DNA of 64,000 nt, taken from NCBI GenBank assembly GCA_030641525.1, contig DAOWHH010000016.1:1073-65072 (forward strand), given 5' to 3'. Positions within the stretch are counted from its first letter, which is position 1. Each line of letters starts with the position of its first letter. Source of the stretch: a bacterium (GTDB lineage Bacteria; Patescibacteriota; Minisyncoccia; Phycocordibacterales; UBA12079). The translations under genes were made by a program, and so were the position numbers. Below the pieces are notes generated by a model. The model was not told the DNA's origin. It made no database searches and was given only the letters and a program-made list of their open reading frames with translations. This document shows, piece by piece, positions 3,885-62,827 of this stretch.

Positions 3885-4352
3885 TTAAATAACCCCTATT
3901 TCTCCTAATTTCTCAGCCAATATATCTGCCTGACCTTCAATTTTTTCTTTATAAGTTTTCCAAATCTTTTCATCCCAAATTTCAATATGATCACTCACTC
4001 CGGCAAAAACTACTTTCGTTTTTAATTTTCCATAACTCTTTAAAAAATCTGGAACCAAAACTCTACCAATAGAATCAAGTGATACTTCCGTAGCTCCGGC
4101 TACCATTAATCTTTTAAAACCTCGTTGATCTGCTTGACCCATAGAAAGTCCTGCTAATTTTTCTGATACTTTTTTCCATTCAGACATAGCGTAAACATAA
4201 ATACAATCATCAGAACCTTTTGTCATAATCATTTTTTTTCCCATAACACCACGAAATTTTGTAGGTAACGAAACCCTTTTTTTAGAATCTATAGTATGTG
4301 TATACTCTCCTATCAACATAATATTTAAAATGTATTTACCACCTTTTCCCAC
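3885..4352 (-). CDS. mraZ: Transcriptional regulator MraZ
   Basis: 155 aa. Begins MLIGEYTHTIDSKKRVSLP, the MraZ signature, with a duplicated MraZ domain. It is the first gene of the dcw operon. Confidence 0.85.
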   Translation of the reverse strand: MGKGGKYILNIMLIGEYTHTIDSKKRVSLPTKFRGVMGKKMIMTKGSDDCIYVYAMSEWKKVSEKLAGLSMGQADQRGFKRLMVAGATEVSLDSIGRVLVPDFLKSYGKLKTKVVFAGVSDHIEIWDEKIWKTYKEKIEGQADILAEKLGEIGVI

Positions 4353-4564
4353 TTAGATAATATTTTATAACACAAACGCCCACAACACAAATATAGTTAT
4401 CCACATATCCCCCTAAAACACTTTATTTTTTAAAATTGAAAATTTCAAAAATAAAGTGTTCGGGCGAACACTCTTGTTTTGCAAGAGTGTTTTAGCCATA
4501 AACACCTCACCAACCATATTTTCAAAAAACTTAGTAATCCAACTACTAAGTGAATGAAATATAC

Positions 4565-4593
4565 TAACTTATTCAAATATCCCTCCTATTTTG
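4565..4593 (+). promoter_or_regulatory. Sigma70-like promoter for rnr
   Basis: TTCAAA, then a 17-nt spacer, then TGcTATAAT (the -10 hexamer at 4588-4593), 14 nt upstream of the rnr start. Confidence 0.5.
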
Positions 4594-4606
4594 CTATAAT
4601 AAGAAT

Positions 4607-6576: not shown

Positions 6577-6590
6577 ATTTGAATGCTTAT

Positions 6591-17316: not shown

Positions 17317-18126
17317 TTAAACCTTCTTAAAAAACCCCTTCCCTTCTTGGCGAACTTTTTCATAAAGAATAATAGAAGTAGCCGAACCAACATTCAAAGA
17401 GTCAATCCCCCTTTTCATTGGAATAGATAATTTATTATCACAACGATTTGAAATATTATCTGATACCCCCTCTTTTTCAGAACCTAAAACAAAAGCCGTC
17501 GGACCTTTCAAATCTTCGTTTGAATAAATACTTCCTTCCATATCCAGAGTAAATATCTTAATACCATTTTTCTTAAGCTCTTTTAGGGCTTCAAAAATAT
17601 TCATTTTCACTAGGGGAATTCTAGCAATCGCTCCAATTGAAAACTGAATAGTATCTTCATTAAAAACCAAATTCATATCTTTTTGAAAAATTAAACCATT
17701 CACTCCTGCAGCAAAAGCTGTACGAGCAATAGTTCCAATATTAGTTGAATAATCAACCTTTTCAAGAAGCAAAAAGAAAGGTTCCTTATCTTTCTCGTAA
17801 AGATTACCTAATAATTTTTTTAAAGTAATAGATTCCTTTCGTTTTAAAATACCTAAAACAGCTTCTCTGCTTTCACGATCTCTTCTTTTAGCCATCTTAC
17901 TATAAGGTGTATTTTCAATTGGTATTTGTCTTTTATTAGCTTCCGATACAATTGCCTTGGTTAAATCATCTTGTTCAAGACCAGCCAATATTACTATTTT
18001 TTCAAAAGCAACATCGCCAATCAGCAATTCATAGATAGCATTTTTATTTCTTATTTTTATCATCTTTTTAGGATACAGGATTATAGAGGTTTTTTCAATG
18101 ATTTGATTTTTGAATAAAAAAATCAC
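17317..18126 (-). CDS. TrmH/SpoU-family RNA 2'-O-methyltransferase (RlmB-like)
   Basis: A SpoU methylase domain (VDYSTNIGTIARTAFAAGVNGLIF ... LGSEKEGVS) with an N-terminal substrate-binding region. The true start is probably an internal Met. Confidence 0.75.
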   Translation of the reverse strand: MIFLFKNQIIEKTSIILYPKKMIKIRNKNAIYELLIGDVAFEKIVILAGLEQDDLTKAIVSEANKRQIPIENTPYSKMAKRRDRESREAVLGILKRKESITLKKLLGNLYEKDKEPFFLLLEKVDYSTNIGTIARTAFAAGVNGLIFQKDMNLVFNEDTIQFSIGAIARIPLVKMNIFEALKELKKNGIKIFTLDMEGSIYSNEDLKGPTAFVLGSEKEGVSDNISNRCDNKLSIPMKRGIDSLNVGSATSIILYEKVRQEGKGFFKKV

Positions 18127-18170
18127 CGTTCATTTTCAATTACTAGGTGATTTGTGTTAAAAACCAAGGA

Positions 18171-18572
18171 TTAATCATCTCTACAAATTGTTGGTAGAAA
18201 TCGCCCTTTTAATCTTCTCGTATGAGAAAACAAAGGTGCGCCATCTTTATAAGAAGATATTTCAAAACCATCTTCTAGTTTTATCCATTTGGTTTTCGAC
18301 GTAATCTTAACAATATTATCTTTGATTTCAAGTGGATACTTTGATAAGTCAGAAACACGAATTTTATTCTTAACACATTCTGCAATAAGAATTACTTCTG
18401 TATTCCTTATAAGCCAAAGCCTTTTATCACATCCATTAGCTTTAAATTCTATTCTATCTACAGGTGTACTTCTTATTAGCTCATAACCATCAATACTTAC
18501 GATAAGAAGTAAACCACTTTTGTCATCTGAAACAATGCCATGTTGACAAAATTCCCAGTCGAACCAAGTCAT
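18171..18572 (-). CDS. Hypothetical protein
   Basis: 133-aa ORF with no motif recognised. Confidence 0.35.
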   Translation of the reverse strand: MTWFDWEFCQHGIVSDDKSGLLLIVSIDGYELIRSTPVDRIEFKANGCDKRLWLIRNTEVILIAECVKNKIRVSDLSKYPLEIKDNIVKITSKTKWIKLEDGFEISSYKDGAPLFSHTRRLKGRFLPTICRDD

Positions 18573-18705
18573 AATCCCCCTTTTCGATTTTTTTTATTTA
18601 AAATCAAATAACTTTAAACTTTATATTTTTTAACATATTTTTGATAAATTAGCAAGAGAAATATATTTAAATAAAAAAATCCCCAACAAAGTTGGGGTTT
18701 TTGTT

Positions 18706-18975
18706 TTACTTCGGCATCGGAAATGCTTCTTGAGCAATAGGAAGAATTAGGTTATGAGTAAACTCCTGAACTTCTTCTATTTTGATACCGAATCTTTTAG
18801 CAGTTAATCCAACCCAAATCTGAATAATTTCAGGATTAAATGAACCAAACCCTTCTTTCCGAACCAAATCCTGAAGTTGAGAATAACAATCTTTCTCCGA
18901 CCTTGGAATTAACTTTTGTTTTTTAAAAAGATATGAACGAGCTATCTCATTTTTTCGTTCTTCTGTCATAGCCAT
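18706..18975 (-). CDS. Hypothetical protein
   Basis: 89-aa ORF. Confidence 0.3.
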   Translation of the reverse strand: MAMTEERKNEIARSYLFKKQKLIPRSEKDCYSQLQDLVRKEGFGSFNPEIIQIWVGLTAKRFGIKIEEVQEFTHNLILPIAQEAFPMPK

Positions 18976-19165
18976 TGTAACCTCCTTTTAATGAACTTTT
19001 ACATAAATCTATAATTTGGTGAGATCAAATGATTTATGATTACGTTAATATGGTACTATAAAATAACAGGAATGTAAAGAATCTTTCTTTGCTCTTGTAA
19101 TTAATTTTTCTATAAAAAAACAGCTGATCAAATTAATCAACTGTTTAGAGGAAAAATGAAAGAGT

Positions 19166-26455: not shown

Positions 26456-26713
26456 AATATACTAGTTGGGTAATTCCCTAAATATTAATATCATTATAGC
26501 ACATTAAAAAATTCCACCAACAACCCACCAAATCAACCTGCAGTAAGCAGTCAGTATCTCCAAGCATTCAATACTGGCTATTTGTAGAAACCACCCTCAA
26601 AAAATTTCTTTTCCTTTTCTCTAAAAAAAATTTGGGGGGCGAAAAAAAAGGAAAAAATGCAAAGAAAGTTTTTTGAGGTGGTCAAAGGAACACTTCGTAT
26701 GCATAATCTATGT

Positions 26714-26789
26714 GGTCACAAATCACTAAATATTTTTTTCGTCCTTTGGACTCAAAAATATCTAAGTGTTTGCCGACCCCGGCTCACGG
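26714..26789 (+). repeat. Family-B element, copy 1 (GGTCACAAATCACTAA...TAAGTGTT...GACCCCG...TCA)
   Basis: A roughly 75-nt element with two small hairpins. Related copies are at 26894-26967 and 53513-53590. Confidence 0.7.
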
Positions 26790-26873
26790 TTTTTACTTCT
26801 TTGTGGGAAGCAAAAACATCGCTCCGCCTTCACAAAACTAAAAAAGTAAAGCAGTTTACTTTTTCTTAACGTT

Positions 26874-26894
26874 TTGTGACCCTACCGGGAATCG
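26874..26894 (-). repeat. Partial copy of the tRNA-Glu 3' end (about 20 nt)
   Basis: TGTGACCCTACCGGGAATCG matches 27061-27080. Confidence 0.75.
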
Positions 26895-26967
26895 GTCACA
26901 AATCACTAATGATTTTGTTCGTGCTTCGCACTCCAAAATCATAAGTGTTCGCGACCCCGTCTCAGAA
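26894..26967 (+). repeat. Family-B element, copy 2
   Basis: GGTCACAAATCACTAATGATTTTGTTCGTGCTTCGCACTCCAAAATCATAAGTGTTCGCGACCCCGTCTCAG. The first hairpin is GTGC-TTC-GCAC here versus GTCC-TTT-GGAC in copy 1, a compensatory change. Confidence 0.7.
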
Positions 26968-27062
26968 AATTTCGAATTTTCTTCCGACTTTCGATTATCT
27001 CCATAAGAGATTCACTAGAATTTAAAAAGAGATAGTTGAAAAACTATCTCTTTTTAAATTTG

Positions 27063-27134
27063 TGACCCTACCGGGAATCGAACCCGGATTGCCGGCTTGA
27101 AAAGCCGATGTCCTAACCATTAGACGATAGGGCC
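27063..27134 (-). tRNA. tRNA-Glu (anticodon UUC)
   Basis: Minus strand reads GGCCCTATCGTCTAATGGTTAGGACATCGGCTTTTCAAGCCGGCAATCCGGGTTCGATTCCCGGTAGGGTCA. Cloverleaf folds, with the anticodon loop TTTTCAA giving anticodon TTC. Confidence 0.85.
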
Positions 27135-27475
27135 ATTATTTATTATTTTAAACTAATTACATTTCTTATATTTTACACGAACATCGGCTTTTACAAAGCC
27201 TTACCCTATTTTCTATCTCACTACCGCTCGATAACGAAAATTTTTTCTTCCAGAAAAATCGGATAAAAAACAAAGAAATTTGTTTTTTATTCCAATAACC
27301 ATTAGACGATAGGGCCATTATTTATTATTTTAAACTAATTACATTTCTTATATTTTACACGAACATCGACTTTTGAAAAGCCGCCTATTTCCTATTTCGC
27401 CCTACTCAATAACGGAAATTTTTTACTTCGTAAAAATCGGATTAAAAGCAAAATGTTTTAGCCATATTACTCCAA
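27115..27475. repeat. Tandem duplication of a roughly 182-bp unit that begins inside the 5' end of tRNA-Glu
   Basis: 27115-27295 and 27297-27475 are about 80% identical. Each starts AACCATTAGACGATAGGGCCATTATTTATTATTTTAAACTAATTAC..., so the second copy holds a 20-nt fragment of the tRNA 5' end. Confidence 0.8.
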
Positions 27476-27530: not shown

Positions 27531-27618
27531 GGAGGTGTGGCTGAGTGGTTGAAGGTACCGCTTTCGAAAAGCGGCATGCGGGAAACTGCATCAGAGGTTC
27601 GAATCCTCTCACCTCCGC
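27531..27618 (+). tRNA. tRNA-Ser (anticodon CGA), long variable arm, CCA not encoded
   Basis: GGAGGTGTGGCTGAGTGGTTGAAGGTACCGCTTTCGAAAAGCGGCATGCGGGAAACTGCATCAGAGGTTCGAATCCTCTCACCTCCG. Anticodon loop is TTCGAAA. Confidence 0.85.
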
Positions 27619-48347: not shown

Positions 48348-48953
48348 TTAAAGATTACTTGAAGTGGAACCAGAAATAAACATATTTAATCCAGTAATAG
48401 CTCCTCCCAAAGCATTTTCCAAATCTTGTACAGAAGATAGATTATTGATATTATTTTCTACATTTCTAGTTTTAGTCGGATTGATATTATTAACTATATC
48501 TTCAAACCATTTATCTAAACCTTGCAAAATTTCATCTGTCATATTACGAACATCAAGTATTAAAACATCATTAAATAGACAACGATGAATTATATTCCCA
48601 TTCAGATCAGGAGAACTAACAAATTTGTAACTCACATATCTTCTACTACTTAAAGTAATTCCTTGATGTAAAATTTTACATCTTATTTCATACCACTCAT
48701 CATCTAATAAAAACGGGCTTGCAACATAATCAGATGCCCACTTTTTATAACGACTTGAATTAGCTAATCCATTTGTTGATTCTAATGCCCCACAGATATC
48801 TGGAAAAATAATAATATAATGTAGTAATGCCCAATAAGCACCAGCTCCTCGCATTAAGGAAATCTGGTCAGTATATACAGAAAATTTTTCTTCAAGTTCT
48901 TCTTTATTCATGGTCTTATTTTTGCTTAATTTTATTAATATATTTTTTATCAA
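48348..48953 (-). CDS. Hypothetical protein, translationally coupled to the upstream helicase (38-bp overlap)
   Basis: 201-aa ORF with no motif. It is the last gene of the AbiH-like/helicase operon. Confidence 0.4.
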   Translation of the reverse strand: MIKNILIKLSKNKTMNKEELEEKFSVYTDQISLMRGAGAYWALLHYIIIFPDICGALESTNGLANSSRYKKWASDYVASPFLLDDEWYEIRCKILHQGITLSSRRYVSYKFVSSPDLNGNIIHRCLFNDVLILDVRNMTDEILQGLDKWFEDIVNNINPTKTRNVENNINNLSSVQDLENALGGAITGLNMFISGSTSSNL

Positions 48954-50544
48954 TAAATTCTAAAATCTTGGGATTTTCATCTTCTAAAGAAATCAATGTT
49001 AGTTTTTCTTTTGCTCTAGTTATACCAACCAAAAATTCGCATATCTTTTGATCAGTAAAATCTGATGTTTCTCGATCTAATATAATTTTATCATTTATAC
49101 CTACATAATAAACAAAATCCATTGAAAGCCCTTTCGAACTCATAACTGTTGTTATCTCTATTTCTGTTGCATCTTTTTTAATTGAGTCAAAACCATTTAT
49201 CATTTTTGAAAGTATATTTTTTAAATTAAAAATCTCACTAAATCTTTTTAACTCTTTGTTATTTAATTTATCTCTACCACTTTTAACTTTTTTAAAAATT
49301 TTAATATCTTCTTCTATATTTTCTTTTATATCTTTTTCTAGACAACTCCAAATTCCTTTTTTTTCTTGATTACTTTGAATTATTATATTTTTCACTTTAT
49401 CCTCAGAAGAAAAATATAGAAACAGAACCTTTCTTAATGATAAATTATCAGTTTTTCTCTCAAAAAGTATCTCAAAAATTTCTACTAAATTTTTGTGCTT
49501 TATTTTATTACATTTTTCTTCTGAAAATAATTCAAAATTAATAACATTAAATCCTTTTTTTATTAAACCTTCATATATTGTTTGTTTTAAATAACTAGGT
49601 ACCAAAACCAAAATCTTTTTTTTAACTCCTTTTTCAATATCTTTTTTTATAGCTTCTGATAATTGATAAATCAACAAGTGGCCTCCACAAGGTACAGAAG
49701 GTATAAAATCAATTTTAGGGTATTTTTCACTAATTTTGTTCTTTTCTTTTATACTATTTGGATATAAAAACTTTTTGTCTAATCGATCTTCTAAATAACC
49801 AGCACCCTTTGAGTTTCTAATTAAATCATTTGTAGTATTAACAATAACTTCCGTGCATCTAAAACAATAATCAAGAGAAAATTCTTCTGTACTAACGTCA
49901 CTATACAAATTTCTTATTTGTTCTGGTTTCGCATTTTTCCAATCATATAGAGATTGATCATCGTCACCAACTAAAACAACTTTATTTTTTTTATTGAGTA
50001 ACTTAATTAATTCATATTCAGATTTATTAAAATCTTGAAATTCGTCTATTAAAATTAAATCGTATTTCGGAATACAAGATTCTTGTTCTGAAAAAATTAA
50101 ATTGATAAGATAAATAATGGAATTAAATGAGTATAATCTTTCTCCATATTTATAAAAAAGAATTCGTTCTTTATAAAAATTTAACTCGTCCTCAGTCAAG
50201 TTATTTTCATGAAATCTTTCTTCATAATTAATATTATCTTTTTTTATAAAAAAATAATCTTCACTTATAACACAATCTAAATTTGAATCAAAATCTACAT
50301 CCCCTATCTTTTTTTTAGCAAAAGCATGTAAAGTCGAAACTTCTACATTTTTAAAATCTTTAAATTCTTGAGATAAATCATCTATCAATTTATTTATAAA
50401 AGAAAGAATTAGTATTTTTTTACCTTTATATTCATCTGATTCTATAATAGTTTTAAAGGTATAACTTTTACCTGTTCCTGGACCAGCTAATCCAACAAAT
50501 AAATTCTTTTCAGATTTTCTTATTTTTTCTAAAATATCAGTCAT
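48916..50544 (-). CDS. Compact UvrD/Rep-type SF1 helicase-like ATPase
   Basis: 542 aa. Walker A LAGPGTGKSYT, motif II ILIDEFQDFN, motif V SSKGLSMDFV, motif VI VGITRAKEKL. Confidence 0.7.
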   Translation of the reverse strand: MTDILEKIRKSEKNLFVGLAGPGTGKSYTFKTIIESDEYKGKKILILSFINKLIDDLSQEFKDFKNVEVSTLHAFAKKKIGDVDFDSNLDCVISEDYFFIKKDNINYEERFHENNLTEDELNFYKERILFYKYGERLYSFNSIIYLINLIFSEQESCIPKYDLILIDEFQDFNKSEYELIKLLNKKNKVVLVGDDDQSLYDWKNAKPEQIRNLYSDVSTEEFSLDYCFRCTEVIVNTTNDLIRNSKGAGYLEDRLDKKFLYPNSIKEKNKISEKYPKIDFIPSVPCGGHLLIYQLSEAIKKDIEKGVKKKILVLVPSYLKQTIYEGLIKKGFNVINFELFSEEKCNKIKHKNLVEIFEILFERKTDNLSLRKVLFLYFSSEDKVKNIIIQSNQEKKGIWSCLEKDIKENIEEDIKIFKKVKSGRDKLNNKELKRFSEIFNLKNILSKMINGFDSIKKDATEIEITTVMSSKGLSMDFVYYVGINDKIILDRETSDFTDQKICEFLVGITRAKEKLTLISLEDENPKILEFIDKKYINKIKQK

Positions 50545-50550
50545 TTTATT

Positions 50551-51402
50551 TCATTTTGTTAGCTTAGAGATATCAATTTTTTCCAAAAAAACTGATTGTA
50601 GAAAGTCAGCCAAATTACTATTGGTTAATTGATCCATTCTATAATCTAGTTCATCCTTAGAATTCTCACCAAAATAATATAAGTCCATATGTAATTTTGA
50701 TATATTTTCGTTTTGACTAAGCCAATTAAATGGGTTTTTAAAGTACATCTCATCAGAAACACCTAATGAATATCCAAATATCGCAATATCGTATCCTTTT
50801 TTTAAATTTTCTGGTAAATCACATCTCTGAAATCCTTCACCTGTTGTCTTTTTAATAAACGTGTGAAATTTAGTTGACTTAGTATCGTCTTGAATTCCAA
50901 ATATTATATTCGACTCAAGATCACCATGAACGTGAATGTGTTTCTCTGCGATATCATTAGAACTCCATCCTTGATTAGCTAAAATATTCTTAACAGTTGA
51001 AGTATAGTTGAAATTATAAATTAAGATGTCAGTAGTTTTGTTGTACTTATCTACCGAGTTATTAGTAATAAAGTTGTATGCTTTTGACTTTTTATTAATT
51101 TTATCATATTTAATACTCTTCAAATATTCTAAAAATTGTTTAGCCAATTCTTTATATTCTTCCTTAAAAGAAGAAAGGATTTTACTACCAAGATTATTGA
51201 TATTGTCTGCGTAATCTTTTAACGCAACTTCTACATCTACCCAATTTTCGAGTTCCGACCGATTTTTTAAATTATTTGCAATTTGATTTCCGTCTTCTAA
51301 GAGTTCATCAAAATATAGACTTTTCAAAAAATGTGAATAAGAGGTTGGTAATCCTAGATTTAAATCAAATCCATTGCCTATGATGATAATTTTCTTTTTC
51401 AT
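50551..51402 (-). CDS. AbiH-like abortive-infection family protein
   Basis: Starts MKKKIIIIGNGFDLNLGLPTSYSHF, the GNGFD N-terminal signature recalled for the AbiH family. The track ORF extends further, from a GTG at 51510, and that extension reads into repeat A1. Ends 6 bp before the helicase start. Confidence 0.55.
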   Translation of the reverse strand: MKKKIIIIGNGFDLNLGLPTSYSHFLKSLYFDELLEDGNQIANNLKNRSELENWVDVEVALKDYADNINNLGSKILSSFKEEYKELAKQFLEYLKSIKYDKINKKSKAYNFITNNSVDKYNKTTDILIYNFNYTSTVKNILANQGWSSNDIAEKHIHVHGDLESNIIFGIQDDTKSTKFHTFIKKTTGEGFQRCDLPENLKKGYDIAIFGYSLGVSDEMYFKNPFNWLSQNENISKLHMDLYYFGENSKDELDYRMDQLTNSNLADFLQSVFLEKIDISKLTK

Positions 51403-51413
51403 TTTTATTTTTT

Positions 51414-51510
51414 TAATGCGGGCAACCTCGTGCTGGAACCGTGGATGGTTAAACTCTGTGAGGTCATTTTTCAATAGATTTATTTTATCAAAATTAAGGT
51501 CTTCGTGCAC
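51414..51510 (-). repeat. Family-A intergenic element, copy 1 (AATGCGGGCAACCTCGTGCTGGAACCGTGG...CGTGCAC)
   Basis: A roughly 95-nt element filling the spacer between the 145-aa gene and the AbiH-like gene. Confidence 0.75.
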
Positions 51511-51516
51511 TTAATT

Positions 51517-51954
51517 TCAATCAAAAAAGAAAGTGATATCAGAACAAATCAAAAAAATAATTATTCCAACAATAATCTTATTTTTGTTATTTTTTATCCA
51601 TCCAATAATATCTATCCAAACCATTCTAAAAAATTGTCTATACGGATTGTTTAAATGCGTTATGTTGATGGTAGTATTTAAATAGAGGGAAAAATTATCT
51701 ACATGAAATTTAAATATATATCCGTTTATAATTTTATTTTTAGGAAGTCTATGCTTATTTATATCTTTATCATCATAATCTGAATCCGAATTGTTTATAA
51801 GTGTATCCAACATTTTATGATATCTGACTAAAAAATACTTATCAACTGATTTTTCCTCAGGAAAAGAAGCGGCCGAACTGAGTAAAGCCTTGATCTCTGA
51901 TTGACATCCCTCCATAACATTTTGTATTTTTATATTATTAATTTTATGATGCAT
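51517..51954 (-). CDS. Hypothetical protein with a C-terminal TM helix
   Basis: 145-aa ORF. Confidence 0.35.
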   Translation of the reverse strand: MHHKINNIKIQNVMEGCQSEIKALLSSAASFPEEKSVDKYFLVRYHKMLDTLINNSDSDYDDKDINKHRLPKNKIINGYIFKFHVDNFSLYLNTTINITHLNNPYRQFFRMVWIDIIGWIKNNKNKIIVGIIIFLICSDITFFFD

Positions 51955-52348
51955 TTGTTTTATTTGGGTGCTTGTCCCACAAATCCCAATAAGATTTCTT
52001 GTCTCTAGGATTACCGGGATCTTTTTTTAAATAAGAATATAAAGTACCTTGTATTTGATGTGCCTGTAGCCAAATCCATCTATCGGTCATGTCTTCAGGA
52101 AATCCAGATTCAAGCAATCTTATTTCTAATCCCTCAATAATTTCAGGTGTTGTTATTTTACATTTTTTTATCCAAAGATATCTTCTTTCTTTGTGTACTC
52201 CATTCACGAAAGAATCCAAAGGACCGAGAACTTTATCCCAAAGTTCTACTGTAATTTTAAGTTGATGGGACGATAGAAACTCTTCTATTTTATTGCAGAA
52301 TCTGTCAATAGTTTCTTTCGATGGTTTTTCTTTATACTTTATTTTCAT
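51944..52348 (-). CDS. Hypothetical protein
   Basis: 134-aa ORF overlapping the next gene by 11 bp. Confidence 0.35.
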   Translation of the reverse strand: MKIKYKEKPSKETIDRFCNKIEEFLSSHQLKITVELWDKVLGPLDSFVNGVHKERRYLWIKKCKITTPEIIEGLEIRLLESGFPEDMTDRWIWLQAHQIQGTLYSYLKKDPGNPRDKKSYWDLWDKHPNKTNAS

Positions 52349-52377
52349 ATATTTAATTATCTTCGTGATAGCTCTAA

Positions 52378-52472
52378 AATGCGGGCAATCTCGAGCTAGA
52401 ACTGTGGGCGGTTAAGTTTGGTAAGGTTGTTTTTAATAAATTCATTCTATCCTTTTGAAGGCCCTCGTGCAC
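52378..52472 (-). repeat. Family-A intergenic element, copy 2
   Basis: AATGCGGGCAATCTCGAGCTAGAACTGTGGGCGGTTAAG...CCCTCGTGCAC, lying between the HNH gene and the 134-aa gene. Confidence 0.75.
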
Positions 52473-52500
52473 TTCTCTTTAATTAAAAATTTTTTGGCGA

Positions 52501-53421
52501 CTATTTAGAATGTCTATTTCCTTTTCCTAAATTACATTTTTCGCAAAGTGTTTGTAAGTTGTCTAGAATTGTTTTACCGCCTTTTGAAAATGGAATTATA
52601 TGATCGATGTGTAATTTACATTTCGGGTCGGTAGCGGGGCTTGTACCACACTTAATACATTTGAACTTATCCCTACTCAAAATTTTATAACGTAAGCCTA
52701 GTTTAATTTCATGGCGATCTTCGCTTGGTACACTAATTTTTTTAATTTCTTCTTCTGGCTCTTTGACAACTGATGTAATCTCTTTTTGTTCTAACTCGTC
52801 GTCTTTTTTATCCATTTTATTAATAAATGCTTCGAGTGCTTTTCTCCAACTTCCAAAACGTGATTCATATGCTGATGGGGTAATTGCCGATGGATGTTCT
52901 GCCATTTCTCTTAAAAAAGGCTGTCGTCCACAATGTGTCCAGACGTTTAACAGGTTTTCATAATATTCATTTTCGGTAAATCTTTTTCCGTAAGGTGACA
53001 ATTGTAATCCTGCCTTTTTAAGTCCTTTGGACCAAGAACCAAATCTGTAAATAACAGTTGAAGCACTAATCATTTCTGAATTATCCTTTATTTCTTCTTG
53101 GGATATATAATTTTTATCGAGTTTCTCAGCAGCCGTTCGTAATTCTTTCAAAATTTCTTTGTCAGTTAAATTTTTATTTTGCTTGCGCATTTTTTCAGAG
53201 ACTGTACGTCCAGAATATTTATGTCCAAGTTTTGCAACATTAAGAGCTTTTTGCCAACCACCTAATCTTTTTTGAATAGTACCAGAAGTTATTTTCCCAT
53301 GCTCATCATAGTCTTTCCTAGTTAATAATTCTTTACCCACAATTACATCAACACGTTTAATCTCATCTATTATTTCTTTGTCGGAGCAATTTCTTGTTAA
53401 GTTTTTTAGTTCAAATTTCAT
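52501..53421 (-). CDS. HNH endonuclease with three N-terminal helix-repeat modules (homing-endonuclease-like)
   Basis: C-terminal HNH (HIDHIIPFSKGGKTILDNLQTLCEKCNLGKGN). Three repeats of the xFGSWxKAL motif (RLGGWQKALNVAKL, RFGSWSKGLKKAGL, RFGSWRKALEAF). Confidence 0.7.
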   Translation of the reverse strand: MKFELKNLTRNCSDKEIIDEIKRVDVIVGKELLTRKDYDEHGKITSGTIQKRLGGWQKALNVAKLGHKYSGRTVSEKMRKQNKNLTDKEILKELRTAAEKLDKNYISQEEIKDNSEMISASTVIYRFGSWSKGLKKAGLQLSPYGKRFTENEYYENLLNVWTHCGRQPFLREMAEHPSAITPSAYESRFGSWRKALEAFINKMDKKDDELEQKEITSVVKEPEEEIKKISVPSEDRHEIKLGLRYKILSRDKFKCIKCGTSPATDPKCKLHIDHIIPFSKGGKTILDNLQTLCEKCNLGKGNRHSK

Positions 53422-53512
53422 GTTTTTATCCTAACGTAATTACTGGTTTTATAATAGTAAGTTACTAACAAACTACTTCGTGCTAGCACGATGTTGCGGA
53501 GAGGACAGGATT

Positions 53513-53590
53513 GGTCACGAATCACTAAGTATATTTCTTCGCTATCGCTCAAAATCTACTAAGTGTTCTCGACCCCGACTCAGCGACAAG
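53513..53590 (+). repeat. Family-B element, copy 3
   Basis: GGTCACGAATCACTAAGTATATTTCTTCGCTATCGCTCAAAATCTACTAAGTGTTCTCGACCCCGACTCAG. Confidence 0.65.
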
Positions 53591-53696
53591 CACTCGCTCC
53601 GCTCGTCTTGTGTACCGCTTCCGTCTTTCGAATCCTGTCTTCTCTTCTGTATGTTTGAAATCAGGAATACCACTCAATGTGGTATTCCTAATTTCA

Positions 53697-53791
53697 AATG
53701 CGGGCAACCTCGTGCTGGAACCGTGGGGTATCAAGCCCTGTAAGGCGGTTTTAAGCTTTTTAGGACTACTAATCGAAGGATCCTCGTGCAC
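53697..53791 (-). repeat. Family-A intergenic element, copy 3
   Basis: AATGCGGGCAACCTCGTGCTGGAACCGTGGGGTATCAAG...TCCTCGTGCAC, preceded by the hairpin CAGGAATACCAC-TCAA-TGTGGTATTCCT at 53661-53690. Confidence 0.75.
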
Positions 53792-53807
53792 CTTTGTTTT
53801 TTCAAAA

Positions 53808-53847
53808 AGTGACAAAAGTGACACATAATTGATATATAAAATTACAG
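53808..53847. repeat. Family-C 40-nt direct repeat, copy 1 (downstream of the EEP gene)
   Basis: AGTGACAAAAGTGACACATAATTGATATATAAAATTACAG. Confidence 0.7.
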
Positions 53848-53903
53848 TCAATTGTAACTTTTGTGATAAATTATGACTCTAAATTCATTAGTTTCAATAA
53901 CCT

Positions 53904-54833
53904 CTAATCATCATCACCCAAATCCGTTCTAAATCTCGCATATATAGGATAATGATCTGAAACTTTAACAACAAAATCTTGATCGGTAATTCCATATTCT
54001 TGATCGAAATAAAATACTTCGGCGCTGTTCGGAATATATTCATAATTTAATGTACTGTCTCTAATTACAATTCTGTCATATGTCCAGCCAGTTTTAGTCA
54101 TTGTGTCCATATCGTTGGTGATTATCCAATGGTAAGGAAAAGATTTGAAAGTATTAGAGGTGGTGTCTTCGTCAAAATAACTACCGTCAGCATTGAAATC
54201 ACCCATAACAATTATGTCTTTTTCATTAGGATTTTTGTTTAAGATTGAATCAACAACATCTGCAAGATGAGCAATTTCTGAATCAGCATCATCCGGTTTT
54301 ATATGAATTCCTGCAAGTGTGAAATCAAAGTCTTCAGCCCGAAAAGAAGCGATATACGGTTCTCTTTCAAAAATATCATTTAAATCTTCATAAACATAAT
54401 CAGAATTTTCTAAAAATTCCACTTGGCAAGTGTTATAGAAATATGCATAAGCCTCTTTACTACTTGTTCTTCCCAGCCTCTGGCTTTTAATAAAGTTAAA
54501 TTTAGGATATTCAAAATCTTCGTTTATTTTAGTTAGATAATATGAAGCAGTTTCTTCTTTTGAGTCTCTTATTTCTTGAACTAATACAACATCAAACTCT
54601 TTGGTAATTTTCTTTAAGACCTTCATGACATCTTCTTTCGCTCTTTTTGTTTTGCCGAATACTTGAATATTAAAAGATGCTATTTTTATTTCTGATTTCG
54701 GGATTTCATTACATGAAGTAGAAGGAGAAGTGCTGATACCATTACCGTTACCAGACAATATAATAATTAAACCTACCACCAACAGAACAAGTAAGTTAAG
54801 GATATTCTTTTTTGATAAGTGTTTTGTAGACAT
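53904..54833 (-). CDS. Secreted or membrane-anchored endonuclease/exonuclease/phosphatase (EEP, DNase I-like) family nuclease
   Basis: Signal/TM N-terminus. EEP motifs (SFNIQVF, VLVQEIRD, MGDFNAD, SDHYPI). Confidence 0.7.
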   Translation of the reverse strand: MSTKHLSKKNILNLLVLLVVGLIIILSGNGNGISTSPSTSCNEIPKSEIKIASFNIQVFGKTKRAKEDVMKVLKKITKEFDVVLVQEIRDSKEETASYYLTKINEDFEYPKFNFIKSQRLGRTSSKEAYAYFYNTCQVEFLENSDYVYEDLNDIFEREPYIASFRAEDFDFTLAGIHIKPDDADSEIAHLADVVDSILNKNPNEKDIIVMGDFNADGSYFDEDTTSNTFKSFPYHWIITNDMDTMTKTGWTYDRIVIRDSTLNYEYIPNSAEVFYFDQEYGITDQDFVVKVSDHYPIYARFRTDLGDDD

Positions 54834-54881
54834 GAGTTTATTTTAACATATATAAATTAAAGGATTCTTGAGTATCTTTGT

Positions 54882-54922
54882 AGTGACAAAAAGTGACACA
54901 TAATCGATATATAAAGTTACAG
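54882..54922. repeat. Family-C direct repeat, copy 2 (upstream of the EEP gene)
   Basis: AGTGACAAAAAGTGACACATAATCGATATATAAAGTTACAG. Confidence 0.7.
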
Positions 54923-55408
54923 CTTCATGTCACTTTTAATTTCGTTATTATCAAGTACCCAACCGTAAACCTCGACTATGCCAATCTTACTTTTATCAAA
55001 GTCTGGCAACACATTTGGTAGCTTTCCTATTGAGATTAATATTCCAAATTTATAAAAATAAGGATCTTTAAAAAAAGTTTCATTAATCTTGTCGAGATCT
55101 TCTTGAAGATCTTTAGTTTTTGGATTTTTCTTTGCTTGAAAAACAACTAAGTTGTCTGAATGATTACTCCTCTTGTGAATAGCAATATCAGGACGTTTTC
55201 TGTCATTCTTTATAAGTTCAACATCAACATTATGTTTAGAAAACATTTCATTAAGTTTACTCTGAAGATGTGAGCATATATTCCACTCTGTTGTTTTCCA
55301 TATCTCGGGCTCAGTATCTGATATTTGTTTACAAGCAAGTGTTGTTTTGTTTAGAATTTCTTGGATTTCCATATTTTTGTTTTGAATTAAATATTTCTTT
55401 TCATCCAA
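54917..55408 (-). CDS. Small PD-(D/E)xK-like protein, paralogue of 21268-21681
   Basis: Shares TEWNI..H ... VDV ... KRPDI.IHKR.NH.DN ... LDKI with the R-M-linked paralogue. Confidence 0.5.
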   Translation of the reverse strand: MDEKKYLIQNKNMEIQEILNKTTLACKQISDTEPEIWKTTEWNICSHLQSKLNEMFSKHNVDVELIKNDRKRPDIAIHKRSNHSDNLVVFQAKKNPKTKDLQEDLDKINETFFKDPYFYKFGILISIGKLPNVLPDFDKSKIGIVEVYGWVLDNNEIKSDMKL

Positions 55409-55925: not shown

Positions 55926-56543
55926 TTAATATAGATCTTCTGGAAGTACTGCAACAACTACCCCTTGGATCATACAATTATCTGTTAATACGATAGGTCT
56001 GTGTTCTTTGTTCTTTGATTTTGGTCGAAGAATAATAGCATCACGAGTCCTCTCAAAAATTTTGACAGTTGCTTCATCATTAATAAGAGCAACTACCTTA
56101 TCTCCATTGTCTGCTGTATTTTGCTGTCTTATAAGAAGCAAGTCGCCATTATTGATTCCATCTGCATCCATTGAATCACCTAACGCTCGGAGAAAAAAAT
56201 ATTTTGATCCCTTTTGAACCATTCTTGTTGAAACAGGAATGTAGGTCTGTATATTTTCTTCTGCAAAGATTGGAGTTCCGCAGGCAACAGAGCCAACGAG
56301 GGGGACATCTACAATACTTACAGAATTTTCTTTATAAGTATTCACGAGTACTAAGTTTCTCCCTTTTTTCTTTATAAGACCAGATGCAATAAGTCGATTA
56401 ATTACAAGACTTGCTGACCTTGGAGATCTTCCACCCGTTACTTCGTTAATTTCACGAAGGGTAGGGCTTTCACCATAATGGATAATCTTGTTGCGGATAA
56501 GGGCAAAAGCTTTTTTGTCTTTGTCACTAAGGTTATTTGTCAT
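55926..56543 (-). CDS. lexA: LexA repressor (S24 peptidase)
   Basis: N-terminal LexA wHTH (LIRNKIIHYGESPTLREINEVTGGRSPRSASLVINRLIASGLIKKKG), cleavage-site region VACG, and catalytic Ser/Lys (GDSM ... K). Start taken at the MTNNLSDK Met; the track ORF begins at 56600. Confidence 0.85.
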   Translation of the reverse strand: MTNNLSDKDKKAFALIRNKIIHYGESPTLREINEVTGGRSPRSASLVINRLIASGLIKKKGRNLVLVNTYKENSVSIVDVPLVGSVACGTPIFAEENIQTYIPVSTRMVQKGSKYFFLRALGDSMDADGINNGDLLLIRQQNTADNGDKVVALINDEATVKIFERTRDAIILRPKSKNKEHRPIVLTDNCMIQGVVVAVLPEDLY

Positions 56544-56616
56544 GGTATAAATAGTATAAATTATTTTATATAATAATGCAAGTATTTTGTTTAAAACCAA
56601 CTCTGTTAAACCACAA

Positions 56617-57309
56617 CTAAGTATTATTTTCTTCTACAACATAATCAATTTTCGTTCTTGCTCCATCTAATACAGGATCATCAAGAGAATACTTTTGGAC
56701 AGGCACAATACCCCTTCCTGAGTATTCTAGTGTTTTATACAAATACCCAAGAAAAGATCCTGTGTACCGATAACAACGTATACATCCTTTTATTTTATCC
56801 TCTACATCATCAGTATAACCTTTCCATTTTTTCAGATAATAATAACGATCAATCCAATCATCAACTGTGTACGTGAGCAAACCAACTAATTCTTGTTGAG
56901 CTAAGACATTACCTTTTTGATACAATCTTACAAGTTTAACTAGAATTTTGTCCCTAGAGGCAAAATCTTTCTCATCAAGTGAAGTAATAAAAGTATATAG
57001 CTTATCTTTATGTTTAGTTAAGATAAGATTAACCTCGTCTTTGTTTTCATATGGTTTTACTACTTTTCGCCTGTACCTTACCCAACGTCTCTGAAATTCT
57101 CTTTCTAGAAGACTGGTAACTCTATCCCAATCTATTTCATCTGTTTCAGTTCTGATATTTTTATGTATAAATCTATATGCACGAGGTACATGTTGAACTA
57201 TCCATGAGCTACTGATTTTTTTAGGTTGTTTTTCACGAATAGTTTTATTTAATTCTTTTATAATACAATTAAGATTCATTGTGAAATTATACACGGGATT
57301 GATTGACAT
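56617..57309 (-). CDS. Hypothetical protein
   Basis: 230-aa ORF upstream of lexA with no motif recognised. Confidence 0.35.
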   Translation of the reverse strand: MSINPVYNFTMNLNCIIKELNKTIREKQPKKISSSWIVQHVPRAYRFIHKNIRTETDEIDWDRVTSLLEREFQRRWVRYRRKVVKPYENKDEVNLILTKHKDKLYTFITSLDEKDFASRDKILVKLVRLYQKGNVLAQQELVGLLTYTVDDWIDRYYYLKKWKGYTDDVEDKIKGCIRCYRYTGSFLGYLYKTLEYSGRGIVPVQKYSLDDPVLDGARTKIDYVVEENNT

Positions 57310-57354
57310 AATATATGGACCCTATATTATTAAAGGTAAGAGTTCTTGAAGAAA

Positions 57355-57585
57355 ACCACATATTGAGCGCATCTCCTCGAGCGCTACCATGTAATCGGCA
57401 GTACCAATTACATTAACGAGGCCGTCTAAGGAAAAACCTAAGACGAAGAGATTTACATCGGCAGAACCGGAGTGAATCTAGGTAACAAAAAGTAATAGTC
57501 TGATATTTCAGACTAGGTGTTTTTGTTTTCTAGATTTGTTCCGGACAAAATGAAAACACCATTTAAGGGGTGTTTTTTTTCGTTT
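57355..57585 (+). ncRNA. Candidate structured non-coding RNA with two tandem intrinsic terminators
   Basis: GC-richer 230-nt ORF-free stretch containing AGCGC-(n10)-GCGCT and repeated ATCGGCAG(T/A)ACC segments. It ends with TAGTCTGATATTTCAGACTA+T-run (57496-57530) and AACACC-ATTTAAGG-GGTGTT+T8 (57555-57580), just upstream of the ParB-MTase gene. Confidence 0.35.
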
Positions 57586-57618: not shown

Positions 57619-58902
57619 ATGTATAAATTAAAATGGACAACGGAAAAACGTCGGATTAATGATTTGGTGCCTTTCGAGAGAAACCCTAGGTCAATTAGCC
57701 CAAAACAATTAAAAGATTTAACAAAGAGTCTTAAAAAATTCAATCTTGTTGAGATTCCTGCAATTGATATAGACAACAAAATACTTGCAGGACACCAACG
57801 CCTAAAAGTATTGCAATTACTTGGACGAGGTGACGAGGAAATAGATGTACGAATTCCAAACCGTAAACTCACTAAAAAAGAATCGGAACAATACCTTATA
57901 TCAAGCAACGTTCTTGGTGGTGATTGGGATTTTGAAAAACTTAAATCATTTGATCTAGATTTGTTGATTGATATTGGTTTTGACCAAGTCGACCTCTCTC
58001 ATCTTTGGAATGATGAGTTAGAAGTGCAAGACGAAGATTTTGAAGTTGAAAAAGAATTAAAGCAGATTAAGAAACCTAAAACAAAAATAGGTGATCTTAT
58101 TTATCTTGGCCCCCATAAATTAATTTGTGGTGATTCCACTGATCCAAAAAATTTAAAAAGATTATTTGGTAACGAACAAGCTTCAATGATTTATTCTGAT
58201 CCTGTATACAACATCTCAATTGATTACAACAAAGGTATTGGGGGAAAACAGAGTTATGGTGGGACCGTTAATGACAACAAGTCTGAAGTTGATTATAGGG
58301 ATCTCATCAAACAAAGTCTTGAGAACGCACTGTCGGTAGCAAAGAAGGATACACATATTTTCTACTGGTGTGATCAAACATACATTTGGTTAATTCAAGA
58401 ACTATATCGAGAACTTGGGATAACAAACAAAAGAGTGTGTTTATGGATTAAAAACGGACACAACCCTGTTCCGAGTGTGGCATTTAATAAGTGCTACGAA
58501 CCATGTACTTATGGTGTGCGAGGAAAACCATACATTACTAAGAATATTCAAAACCTCAATGAAGTTTTGAATAAAGAGATTACTACAGGTAATAACTTAC
58601 TTGAAGAAACTCTTGATGAACTCGATGTATGGCTTGTTAAACGTCTTTCTCACAAAGACTATGAACATGCAACAAGCAAGCCACCAAAGTTACACGAAAA
58701 GGCAATTCGTAGATGTACAAAACCCGGAGATATTATTCTTGATTCATTTTCAGGATCAGGAAGTACTTTAATTGCAGGAGAGCAATTAAAACGCAAAGTC
58801 TACGCGGTCGAACTAGAACCTATCTTTTGTGATCTTGTGATTAAAAGATATGAAAAATTAACAGGCGTTAATGCAAAAATAGAAAATGTCAAAGAAAAAT
58901 AA
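57619..58902 (+). CDS. ParB-like nuclease domain fused to a DNA (N4/N6) methyltransferase
   Basis: N-terminal ParB/Srx domain (FERNPRSISPKQLKDL ... AGHQRLKV). C-terminal methylase motifs (SDPVYNI; DSFSGSGST). This is a phage-typical architecture. Confidence 0.75.
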   Translation: MYKLKWTTEKRRINDLVPFERNPRSISPKQLKDLTKSLKKFNLVEIPAIDIDNKILAGHQRLKVLQLLGRGDEEIDVRIPNRKLTKKESEQYLISSNVLGGDWDFEKLKSFDLDLLIDIGFDQVDLSHLWNDELEVQDEDFEVEKELKQIKKPKTKIGDLIYLGPHKLICGDSTDPKNLKRLFGNEQASMIYSDPVYNISIDYNKGIGGKQSYGGTVNDNKSEVDYRDLIKQSLENALSVAKKDTHIFYWCDQTYIWLIQELYRELGITNKRVCLWIKNGHNPVPSVAFNKCYEPCTYGVRGKPYITKNIQNLNEVLNKEITTGNNLLEETLDELDVWLVKRLSHKDYEHATSKPPKLHEKAIRRCTKPGDIILDSFSGSGSTLIAGEQLKRKVYAVELEPIFCDLVIKRYEKLTGVNAKIENVKEK

Positions 58903-61155: not shown

Positions 61156-61304
61156 CTTTAGCGGATTTAAAAACGGTGGAAGTCTTTAGAATTACAAAAG
61201 ACTCCTCGCCATCGCGAATGAACCGAAGCTCATCCCATATGGGTTTCCCCACATGACCGCTAAAGTGACTCTGGACGAGGAGTCTTTTATACTTTAGCGG
61301 ATTT
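61156..61304. repeat. Structured element bounded by 13-bp direct repeats CTTTAGCGGATTT, with a 13-bp long-range inverted repeat
   Basis: AAAAGACTCCTCG (61196-61208) pairs with CGAGGAGTCTTTT (61276-61288), enclosing the hairpin CCCATATGGG. Followed by a (TA)6 tract before the recombinase gene. Confidence 0.6.
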
Positions 61305-61507
61305 TTCAACCATGCCTTATAAAAATTTTATAAGGGTTAGGTCTACTACTAATATTCAATTGTTAATTAACATAATACCGTATCTTTACAGTATTATCCA
61401 TACACCTTATCGCAAATCCTTTGTTTTGCTAAGGGAAGTTGCCAACAAGTTGTCGACGCCACATCGCTTAGCAAGAGACTCTTTCTCTGTCATTAATATA
61501 TATATAT

Positions 61508-62827
61508 ATGGAAACGAATACATTTTCACAACAAACCAAGTCGGCAGTAATTCCAGACATTAAGATGAAGTATTGCCTATATGCTCGAAAAAGTACTGAA
61601 TCAGACGAACGACAAGCCCTGTCTATTGATTCTCAAGTCAAAGAGATGTTACAGATAGCAGAAAGAGAGGGTCTCGAGATTATAGATATTAGAAGAGAAT
61701 CAAAATCAGCTAAAGACTCGAATAATAGACCTGTATTTAAAGAATTACTTCGTGATATATCGGAAGGACGATTTAACGCTATCCTCACATGGGCACCTGA
61801 TAGATTATCAAGAAATGCAGGTGATCTTGGTTCTGTTGTTGATTTAATGGATGCAAAAAAACTTATAGGTATTCGTACTTATGGGCAAACTTTTTCTAAT
61901 TCTCCAAACGAAAAATTTCTCTTGATGATTCTTTGTTCTCAGGCAAAACTAGAAAATGATAATAGAGGTATAAATGTAAAAAGAGGATTACGAACAAGAT
62001 GTGAAATGGGATTATGGCCGACCTGTCCACCCACTGGGTATTTTAAAGAAAAAAGAATGGATCGAAAATGTGAATGTCTTATTGATGAAGAAAGAGCCCC
62101 TGTTATAAAACAAATATTTGAGAAAGTGGCTTATGAGAAATGGTCTGGAAGAAAAATTTATCACTGGCTTAGGTTTGATTTGAATTTTAGAACAGAAGCT
62201 GGAAAGAAACATTTTAGTCTAGGTAATATTTATCGGATGTTAGAGAATCCATTTTATTATGGAACTTTTGAATATCCCAGAGGATCAGGCAATTGGTACA
62301 AAGGAAAACACGAGCCAATAATCACCAAAGAACTTTTTGATTTAGTACAAGGTCAAGTAAAGAATTCTCAACTTGTTAGAAAAGAAAATATTGAATTTGC
62401 CTTTACCAAAATTATGAAATGCGGACTTTGTGGATCTGGAATTTCAGCAACTGAAAAATTCAAAAAATTAAAAAGTGGAGATTTTAATCGACATGTTTAC
62501 TATGGTTGTACAAAAGCGAAAGATAAATATTGTAAATGTGGGTTTATAAACGAAAACAATCTTATTCAACAGCTACAGAACTTGGTTGATGAGATACAGA
62601 TGGACGAAACAGGCGTTCTTAAGAAAATAAAAGCGGAGGTGGCTCGCTATAAAAAATTCCAAGCAACCCTATTGGGGAATGAGATGGATACCGTGGTGTC
62701 TGACGTAGATACTAGGGATTATGTGAAATTCCTGATTAAGAACGGCACTCTTGAAGAGAAGCGAGAGATTATGTTGTGCTTCACGTCTAGTATTAGCTTA
62801 AAAAATGGAAAAATTGGCTTAAAATAA
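61508..62827 (+). CDS. Large serine recombinase (integrase/resolvase family)
   Basis: N-terminal resolvase catalytic domain (YARKSTESDERQALSIDSQ ... LTWAPDRLSRN). Recombinase domain and zinc ribbon (CGLCGS ... YYGCTKAKDKYC). Probable start at MKYCLYARKST. Confidence 0.85.
   Translation: METNTFSQQTKSAVIPDIKMKYCLYARKSTESDERQALSIDSQVKEMLQIAEREGLEIIDIRRESKSAKDSNNRPVFKELLRDISEGRFNAILTWAPDRLSRNAGDLGSVVDLMDAKKLIGIRTYGQTFSNSPNEKFLLMILCSQAKLENDNRGINVKRGLRTRCEMGLWPTCPPTGYFKEKRMDRKCECLIDEERAPVIKQIFEKVAYEKWSGRKIYHWLRFDLNFRTEAGKKHFSLGNIYRMLENPFYYGTFEYPRGSGNWYKGKHEPIITKELFDLVQGQVKNSQLVRKENIEFAFTKIMKCGLCGSGISATEKFKKLKSGDFNRHVYYGCTKAKDKYCKCGFINENNLIQQLQNLVDEIQMDETGVLKKIKAEVARYKKFQATLLGNEMDTVVSDVDTRDYVKFLIKNGTLEEKREIMLCFTSSISLKNGKIGLK

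Follow-up and report, generated by a model that had tools for sequence, protein, structure and literature searches.

A 64-kb stretch of Patescibacteria DNA (64,000 nucleotides (nt) of contig DAOWHH010000016.1, here termed the window; GC content 30%) carries three direct copies of a repeat of ~95 nt, at 51414-51510, 52378-52472 and 53697-53791, in a region where an AbiH protein, an HNH endonuclease and other proteins are encoded. All genes around the copies lie on the minus strand, and each copy is therefore 3' of one gene and 5' of the next. Here we argue that these repeats are probably the right arm, X', of the attachment site of a large serine recombinase (LSR), located at the joints of small cassettes that were serially inserted next to a tRNA-Ser gene in Patescibacteria. 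All of the evidence for this attachment-site reading is comparative.

The repeat and its relatives

The 29-nt left end of the repeat, ATGCGGGCAACCTCGTGCTGGAACCGTGG, is identical in copies 1 and 3 and has exactly two occurrences (0 expected from shuffles, n = 100), copy 2 is a variant with 74% identity, and CYTCGTGCAC forms the right end of all three copies. An internal direct repeat, CCTCGTGC, is present and the middle of the repeat varies, and thus the description in an earlier note on this DNA (three copies with conserved ends, this internal repeat and a variable middle) proved accurate. A profile built from the copies found no fourth copy in the window. Conservation starts exactly at TGCGG, at 51417, 52380 and 53699 in copies 1, 2 and 3, and an extra conserved arm of 22 nt lies to the left of copy 2 (52361-52382), with a lone second occurrence at 53476-53497. 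We use X' for the conserved block of ~90 nt to the right of the core, X for the 22-nt arm that is sometimes present to its left, and TGC-GG for the core itself. The gene stops to the right of copies 1, 2 and 3 are 6, 28 and 112 nt away. The earlier note had placed each copy directly upstream of a gene; this holds for copies 1 and 2, but the next feature after copy 3 in the sense direction is a non-coding module of 200 nt, with no gene.

Relatives of the repeat were sought in other genomes. A first scan with exact patterns, covering one genome per species, returned 47 loci, of which 42 were chance matches in high-GC sequence; the five true homologues all came from Patescibacteria metagenome-assembled genomes with ~31% GC, and these also contained several copies at a spacing of 1-2 kb. 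A second pattern scan, of metagenome contigs, added 44 further loci with a GC content of 26-51%, and a profile search of the window and the 49 loci detected 63 copies. The set used for alignment comprises 57 copies anchored on TGCGG, from the window and the 49 Patescibacteria genome and metagenome loci. Viral contigs gave no match to the repeat pattern. In 15 of the 44 metagenome contigs, a contig end lies within ~150 nt of a copy, as expected if assemblies break at a repeat or a hypervariable joint.

The genes beside the copies are nearly all different, their proteins falling into ~70 clusters among ~90, and a conserved neighbour gene under the control of the element, which we had sought, was ruled out on this ground. 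What recurs is position: with X' read as the plus strand, the stop of a minus-strand open reading frame (ORF) lies within 150 nt of its right end in 49 of 52 copies. Neighbours elsewhere include a nucleotidyltransferase, a P-loop kinase, a methyltransferase and a solute symporter; those in the window include AbiH, HNH and proteins without a family match.

Anatomy of the site

In the anchored set, the top-base frequency averages 0.43 in the 45 nt before TGCGG and rises to 0.93 in the 30 nt that come next. To the right, the sequence is near-invariant for 30 nt and recognizable for ~95 nt, and the left sides are unrelated between copies; the sharp boundary at TGCGG is thus directly visible in the alignment. 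An automatic split assigned the left flanks of the 57 copies to three classes, namely an X arm with the pattern C[TC]TCGTGCTAGC...TGC (18 copies), a strong hairpin (20 copies) and others (19 copies). The hairpin flanks consist of a hairpin and a few bases, with a sequence that differs from locus to locus, and the other flanks include LSR coding sequence.

X and X' are inverted repeats about GG, with agreement at 12-15 of 20 positions in most X-flanked copies, compared with 5 of 20 by chance. The full site has the consensus GTGCTAGCACGATGTTGC-GG-GCAACCTCGTGCTGGAAC, an imperfect palindrome of ~40 bp, and this directly observed dyad symmetry is that of an LSR attachment (att) site (~40-50 bp). 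Examples in the window are 52361-52404, which is degenerate, and 53476-53499, which is a left half only. The GGAAC of X' is invariant, and the tRNA-Ser arm of the same junctions has TCGAAC at that position; this correspondence fits a half-site motif of a recombinase rather than a LexA box. A comparison of half-sites further revealed that the coding end of the LSR resembles tRNA-Ser trailers and that T[GC]GAAC is common to X' and the tRNA arm at an equal distance from the core, and that GGAAC lies 5 bases further out in another right arm, which encodes RGWD (see below). This spacing is suggestive, but not decisive, of a division into P-type and B-type arms.

Probable insertion at tRNA-Ser

In 12 loci, X' copies are followed on their right by a tRNA-Ser gene on the complementary strand, and in nine of these X directly abuts the 3' end of the tRNA, forming hybrid junctions (X-GG-tRNA) that can be read directly from the sequence. 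An empty and an occupied site can be compared in the same way: the trailer of the unoccupied tRNA-Ser of locus L068 and the left flank of X' in L055 are identical at 95 of 95 positions, and right after GCGG only 10 of 30 agree. A complete single cassette is present in L029, in the order terminator hairpin-TGC-GG-X' (4015-4102), a gene for 163 amino acids (aa) on the minus strand, X (4614-4636), GG and tRNA-Ser(gga), and this layout indicates that the left flanks of the hairpin class are displaced tRNA terminators. Both ends of a recombinase-bearing element are found in L096, one reading trailer hairpin-TGCGG-AGAGGGTGGGACG... (P') at 6399 and the other LSR-TGCGG-tRNA-Ser at 11475.

Tandem elements split by direct att repeats, including elements without a recombinase, occur in the window (three copies, two cassettes), L039 (three copies), L008, L043, L081 and L091. 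Identical types of cargo gene recur in different arrays: NTP_transf_6 occupies an internal position in L043 and stands alone at the tRNA in L059, and a family of 182 aa comes after an X' with a hairpin flank in L048 and after an X' with an X flank in L049 and L065. No complementary-strand tRNA-Ser was detected to the right of the window array with Rfam and ARAGORN. The tRNA-Ser(cga) gene of the window, listed in Table 1, looks like an empty example of the sites used in other genomes.

A recombinase gene that ends in X'

X' overlaps the 3' end of a plus-strand LSR gene in L068, L075, L082 and L088, and the four genes encode the Pfam domains Resolvase, Recombinase and Zn_ribbon_recom. The LSR frame runs directly across X' and reads RATS[GCS]WNR..F*, which provides the last ~18 codons of the gene and is followed by the 3' untranslated region (UTR). 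Of the 57 copies, 37 preserve this peptide with its stop at codon 17-18, among them copies far from any recombinase gene, and the variable bases in the first 30 nt of X' fall mostly at third codon positions of this frame. In the window, LSR residues 493-510 align to copies 3 and 1 in a tblastn search, which found no other LSR remnant beside the copies.

The LSR has more than 3,600 homologues at E <= 1e-20, many of them from named Patescibacteria. The 120 closest are collinear up to a conserved ...R, after which the tails diverge: four have the X' tail, and at least 54 have an xDSNP tail, which is the translation of GGATTCGAACC, the antisense of the tRNA T-arm. The LSR genes of L092, L093, L095 and L096 have their 3' ends within a tRNA-Ser on the complementary strand, at ...CTGC-GG-AGAG.... 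This switch of LSR tails at the junction, which falls at one and the same codon, suggests that the crossover falls inside the 3' end of the enzyme's own gene and that the tail is set by the sequence to the right of GG. The right arm of L096, AGAGGGTGGGACG..., encodes RGWD..., and this is the tail of LSRs P0006, P0014 and P0015. We also considered X' as the far end of these tRNA-Ser LSR elements and rejected it, since no X' was detected within 10 kb in L092, L093, L095 and L096 and the right arm AGAGGGTGGGACG... is found instead. The use of this different arm suggests that X' is the right arm of one subgroup only, represented by four of the 120 closest LSRs.

A model of cassette insertion

These comparisons point to a model in which a complete site, X-GG-X', centred on GG, would be used by an LSR family of Patescibacteria. 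A cassette would have the form X', cargo gene or genes on the opposite strand, and X, and it would insert at the extreme 3' end of tRNA-Ser, between the tRNA and its terminator, to give terminator-GG-X' ... X-GG-tRNA; repeated insertion would then produce arrays with X-GG-X' between the cassettes. X' would exceed the length of a half-site because it includes the last ~18 codons of the recombinase and the 3' UTR, and a crossover located in the 3' end of the enzyme's own gene would swap its C-terminal tail with each recombination. We infer that the insertion events are catalysed by this LSR family and that GG is the dinucleotide of the staggered cut; GG is the centre of the dyad, but TGCGG is common to all arms. 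X-GG-X' would similarly be the donor (attP-like) site of the cassettes that lack a recombinase. The start codons of cassette genes lie ~12 nt from X in several cases, and these genes may be read through from the tRNA promoter. By the logic of such cassettes, a copy would belong to the gene whose stop precedes it and not to the gene downstream of it.

Applied to the window, the model would make copies 1-3 the borders of two cassettes, one with two small ORFs and the other with the HNH gene, and a gene-less module of 200 nt would have entered one of the junctions later (Table 1). The module is placed exactly within an otherwise intact X-GG-X' site; in L008, two modules of this kind follow one another at that point. 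The window module opens with 13 nt, AGAGGACAGGATT, that match the antisense 3' end of the L071 tRNA-Ser(gga) without a difference. Copy 3, which lies to the right of the module, is 87-94% identical to copies in five Patescibacteria genomes. For the two ORFs of cassette 1 (145 and 134 aa), no family match was obtained, and NCBIfam and PADLOC added nothing.

Table 1. Repeat copies, proposed cassettes and other annotated features of the window
Feature	Position	Strand	Remarks
tRNA-Ser(cga)	27531-27618	+	antisense strand reads ...ATATTGC-GG-AGGTGAGAGGATTCGAACC; TGC-GG motif, without X or X' arm
UvrD/GajB-like helicase	48916-50544	-	
AbiH	50551-51402	-	
Core TGC-GG of copy 1	51417-51421	+	GG at 51420-51421; left flank is the AbiH 5' region, without X arm; start of homology common to the 57 copies
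X' arm, copy 1	51422-51510	+	profile 93.7 bits; LSR-tail frame reads through, RATSCWNRGWLNS..., 31 codons
Cargo of cassette 1	51517-52348	-	overlapping small ORFs of 145 aa (51517-51954) and 134 aa (51944-52348)
X arm CTTCGTGATAGCTCTAAAATGC and core GG (52383-52384)	52361-52384	+	degenerate form of the GCTCTAAGA variant; ATG at 52348, 12 nt off
X' arm, copy 2	52385-52472	+	profile 100.3 bits; LSR-tail frame broken, RAISS*
Cargo of cassette 2: HNH endonuclease of 306 aa with three homing-endonuclease-associated repeats	52501-53421	-	PF18780 3.6e-34, PF01844 2.4e-12
X arm CTTCGTGCTAGCACGATGTTGC and core GG (53498-53499)	53476-53499	+	perfect 14-bp palindrome TCGTGCTAGCACGA; homologues abut X' or tRNA-Ser in other loci
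GC-rich non-coding module of ~200 nt at the GG core	53500-53701	.	terminal stem; ends in hairpin 53654-53698, then TAATTTCAAATGC
Core GG (53702-53703) and X' arm, copy 3 (53704-53791)	53702-53791	+	profile 127.9 bits; LSR-tail frame intact, RATSCWNRGVSSPVRRF*
EEP-family nuclease	53904-54833	-	
LexA-like S24 protein	55926-56600	-	
LSR paralogue (Resolvase, Recombinase and Zn ribbon)	61508-62827	+	

A broader view of these loci is possible, and we offer it tentatively: the tRNA-Ser of Patescibacteria could serve as an integron-like platform for gene capture, driven by a serine recombinase, where short cassettes with palindromic sites are stacked between tRNA and terminator and each event rewrites the tail of the enzyme. 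Each cassette would then carry a spare 'last exon' for the recombinase, with X', a tRNA-mimic arm or antisense tRNA as the source of the tail, and we conjecture that the tail swap could serve as a built-in switch of directionality or stability.

Several points weigh against the attachment-site reading. Circular cassette contigs, sought by terminal overlaps, were not found. The loci were gathered with exact-match patterns, which biases the sample to well-conserved copies, and the crossover is placed no finer than the shared TGCGG. In L092 and L093, no X' was detected in the 10 kb before the LSR, and other members of the family have another right arm. In the window, no LSR with an X' tail was found, the sole LSR there being a paralogue with 35-37% identity; copies 1 and 2 are without an intact LSR-tail frame, and copy 1 is without a left X arm. 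The window array may accordingly be old, a fossil, or may depend on an enzyme encoded elsewhere. In addition, canonical LSRs (serine integrases) are known to recombine attP with attB only, and arrays with intact X-GG-X' joints would need non-canonical pairs of sites or multimeric donors.

Alternative explanations

The repeats could instead be inert debris, that is, the leftover 3' ends of decayed recombinase genes from once-complete mobile elements, retained by chance and with no site-specific role. In line with this explanation, X' is the 3' end of an LSR gene, some left flanks of the third class resemble degraded LSR coding sequence (for example, ...GATTGATAAAC-TGCGG in L054), and the reading frame is lost in copies 1 and 2 of the window. 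However, the truncation of 57 copies at one nucleotide is unlike random decay, and debris would leave unexplained the dyad-symmetric partner arm at the truncation point, the X-GG-tRNA-Ser junctions of nine loci and the exact empty/occupied pair; moreover, no remnant of the LSR body was found beside the window copies. We therefore regard this explanation as unlikely.

We consider it improbable as well that the repeat is a shared cis-regulatory module, acting as a promoter, LexA operator or 5' leader RNA for each downstream minus-strand gene, which was the idea put forward in the earlier note along with that of a small mobile insertion. The copies do sit between co-oriented genes, with the next start 12-30 nt off for copies 1 and 2. 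In several loci, the X arm and a left extension of it are conserved just before the start codons of cassette genes, and the junction could aid expression. A LexA-like S24 protein is also encoded in the window (Table 1). Nevertheless, no sigma-70-like promoter was found inside the copies on the gene strand, and the promoter matches of the region (14) are not above those of shuffles (11.1 +/- 3.2), which speaks against a shared promoter. A leader RNA is contradicted by fold z-scores of -0.7 to +1.4 (RNA or DNA, both strands) and by an alignment of 54 distinct copies, in which no conserved structure emerged: for the gene strand, the consensus structure reached -0.2 kcal/mol and the covariation term was ~0. 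As for LexA, the GAAC-N4-GTTC box, which is of the Gram-positive type and may not be that of Patescibacteria, is absent from the copies and not enriched in the window, and the GAAC segment that had been proposed as an operator lies at the position of TCGAAC in the tRNA-Ser arm. What stays constant, in 49 of 52 copies, is the position relative to the stop codon of the opposite neighbour, and their left neighbour is often a terminator, an LSR gene or a plus-strand gene, which leaves no downstream target. The suggestion of a small mobile insertion went in the right direction as far as mobile DNA is concerned, but the repeat itself would be no insertion; it is better read as the arm of a recombination site at the borders of cassettes.

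On another reading, the plus strand would carry a conserved small RNA gene or RNA element in antisense to the cassette genes. This would account for a GC-rich block in a genome of 30% GC and for its strong conservation across species (87-94% for copy 3), and a weak consensus helix at the plus-strand 5' end (-5.3 kcal/mol) folds better than most column shuffles, of which 4 in 100 reach this energy. We judge this explanation very improbable, given that the covariation term is ~0 and that variation at third codon positions with preservation of the peptide and stop is the signature of a coding sequence and not of an RNA. Rfam gave nothing at the copies, either at the gathering threshold in the window or at E <= 5 in 51.3-57.7 kb.

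Finally, that the repeats are integron-type attC sites, the single-stranded hairpin substrates of a tyrosine integron integrase, is extremely improbable despite the cassettes of ~1 kb in a single orientation, the site of 90-120 nt with conserved ends and a variable middle and the partly defence-type cargo, because neither strand forms a hairpin (DNA minimum free energy -4 to -11 kcal/mol, z-scores -0.2 to +1.4), the ends of the element are direct (CCTCGTGC) and not inverted repeats, the R''/R' pair RYYYAAC...GTTRRRY is absent by reading of the sequence, the linked recombinase is a serine recombinase, and no tyrosine integrase was detected among the 10 ORFs scanned in 48.9-58.9 kb.

Other features of the window and related loci

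The module in the junction of copy 3 belongs to a family of GC-rich, gene-less modules of ~200 nt, found in the window at 53500-53701 and 26690-27010 and in L008 at 4280-4690. Each starts with 13-19 nt identical to an antisense tRNA 3' end, that of tRNA-Ser at 53.5 kb and that of tRNA-Glu at 26.9 kb; GGTCAC[AG]AATCACTAA...CTAAGTGTT..CGACCCCG.CTCA comes next. At 53.5 kb, a terminal stem of ~16 bp and a terminal hairpin are present. Such a module also seems to encode the tail of LSR P0011 (RRVRDSVT...). Modules of this kind could be miniature non-autonomous elements or structured RNAs. Copy 3 together with the adjacent GC-rich stretch was also examined as a candidate tmRNA, RNase P RNA or tRNA and was rejected, as ARAGORN reported only a tRNA-Glu and a tRNA-Ser at 27 kb. 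At that tRNA locus, a block of ~150 nt that includes the 5' part of the tRNA-Glu, ccattagacgatagggccatt..., is duplicated (27135-27290 and 27295-27450, within 27062-27450), and a further event of insertion or duplication at a tRNA gene is suggested by this.

The EEP nuclease gene lies between the two copies of a second direct repeat, ~85-90 nt long and 75-84% identical (53771-53862 and 54855-54937); the last 20 nt of copy 3 are part of this repeat, as is an operator-like palindrome, AAAAGTGACA...TGTCACTTTT. The same sequence follows X' in L008 and L036, and in L008 it is located just before a DNA methylase gene. The LexA-like S24 peptidase of the window and an N6/N4 DNA methylase (57619-58902) are each present in eight X'-bearing loci (the window, L008, L036, L057, L058, L066, L069 and L070); they could mark either a conserved stretch of chromosome or the backbone of a larger element, integrated from copy 3 onwards. 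Between an ORF at 56617-57309 and the methylase gene, 57330-57560 is GC-rich and non-coding and ends in a terminator-like hairpin, with no Rfam match above noise.

The LSR paralogue at 61508-62827, 7.7 kb from the repeats, has 35-37% identity to the X'-linked LSRs and is without their C-terminal region, which makes it an improbable cognate enzyme. The minus strand at 61216-61343 encodes a full-length LOOT RNA (Rfam RF03000, 82.3 bits; gathering threshold 46.4), 165 nt upstream of the paralogue gene and in divergent orientation to it. In L095, similar blocks with a reverse transcriptase (RVT_1), an ABC-membrane-like protein and a PLD-like protein lie on either side of the recombinase/tRNA-Ser locus (6461-7714 and 17955-19160), and these could be defence-type retroelement systems.

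Significance and comparison with known systems

The genomes of Patescibacteria (the candidate phyla radiation) are ~1 Mb in size, and the routes by which these bacteria gain and trade accessory and defence genes are poorly understood. If true, a system of recombinase and cassettes at tRNA-Ser would account for hypervariable islets and for the many assemblies that break at the element, and the X' profile would provide a simple handle for finding cassette islets in metagenomes. Serine integrases normally need a separate directionality factor; a crossover within the recombinase coding sequence would make the C-terminus differ before and after recombination, which bears on directionality. Natural attachment sites with defined partners, among them palindromic ones and mimics of a tRNA 3' end, could also be of use as tools.

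Full-text searches of the literature returned no description of this cassette system. Its closest analogues are tandem islands of the staphylococcal cassette chromosome (SCC) type, integrons and tRNA-island arrays such as tycheposons. SCC and SCCmec elements of staphylococci, which are moved by the LSRs CcrAB and CcrC, insert at the 3' end of a conserved gene (rlmH) and form tandem elements of 20-60 kb. They resemble the present loci in the use of an LSR, in having the extreme 3' end of a conserved gene as target, in the direct att repeats at every junction and in tandem accumulation, and also in the recombinase-less 'pseudo' elements of the same arrays, which are presumably moved in trans. 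In contrast, the target here is tRNA-Ser and not rlmH, with no rlmH context seen, the cassettes are ~0.6-1.1 kb long with one or two genes, the repeated arm of ~90 nt doubles as the C-terminal coding sequence of the recombinase, and the hosts are Patescibacteria.

Integrons (IntI, attI, attC) are similar in their short, mostly single-gene and co-oriented cassettes, each with its own site, and in their variable cargo, which includes defence genes; a start codon within ~12 nt of the site in several cassettes, suggesting an outside promoter, is a further likeness. They differ in that the recombinase here is a serine and not a tyrosine enzyme, the site is a double-strand palindrome around a dinucleotide and not a folded single strand, and the platform is a tRNA gene and not attI beside intI. 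In mycobacteriophage integration-dependent immunity, attP lies inside the repressor gene, recombination is by a tyrosine integrase, and the C-terminus of the repressor differs between the integrated and excised states. The crossover is there, as here, in the 3' end of a gene of the element, but the gene here is that of the serine recombinase itself.

Genomic islands that target tRNA genes include the tycheposons of Prochlorococcus (bioRxiv 10.1101/2020.12.28.424599) and those described with Islander (PMC4383910). They share with the present loci the insertion at a tRNA, tandem accretion, cargo-only satellites flanked by att repeats and the occurrence as hypervariable islands in streamlined genomes. 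Their repeats are partial tRNA sequences and their enzymes mostly tyrosine recombinases, whereas the repeat here is not tRNA-derived, and the crossover here is at the last bases of the acceptor stem, whereas theirs is in the T or anticodon loop. Together, four properties set the loci described here apart from all of these systems: the use of the last acceptor-stem bases of tRNA-Ser, a palindromic double-strand site, the size of the cassettes, and an arm that forms the last ~18 codons of the recombinase.

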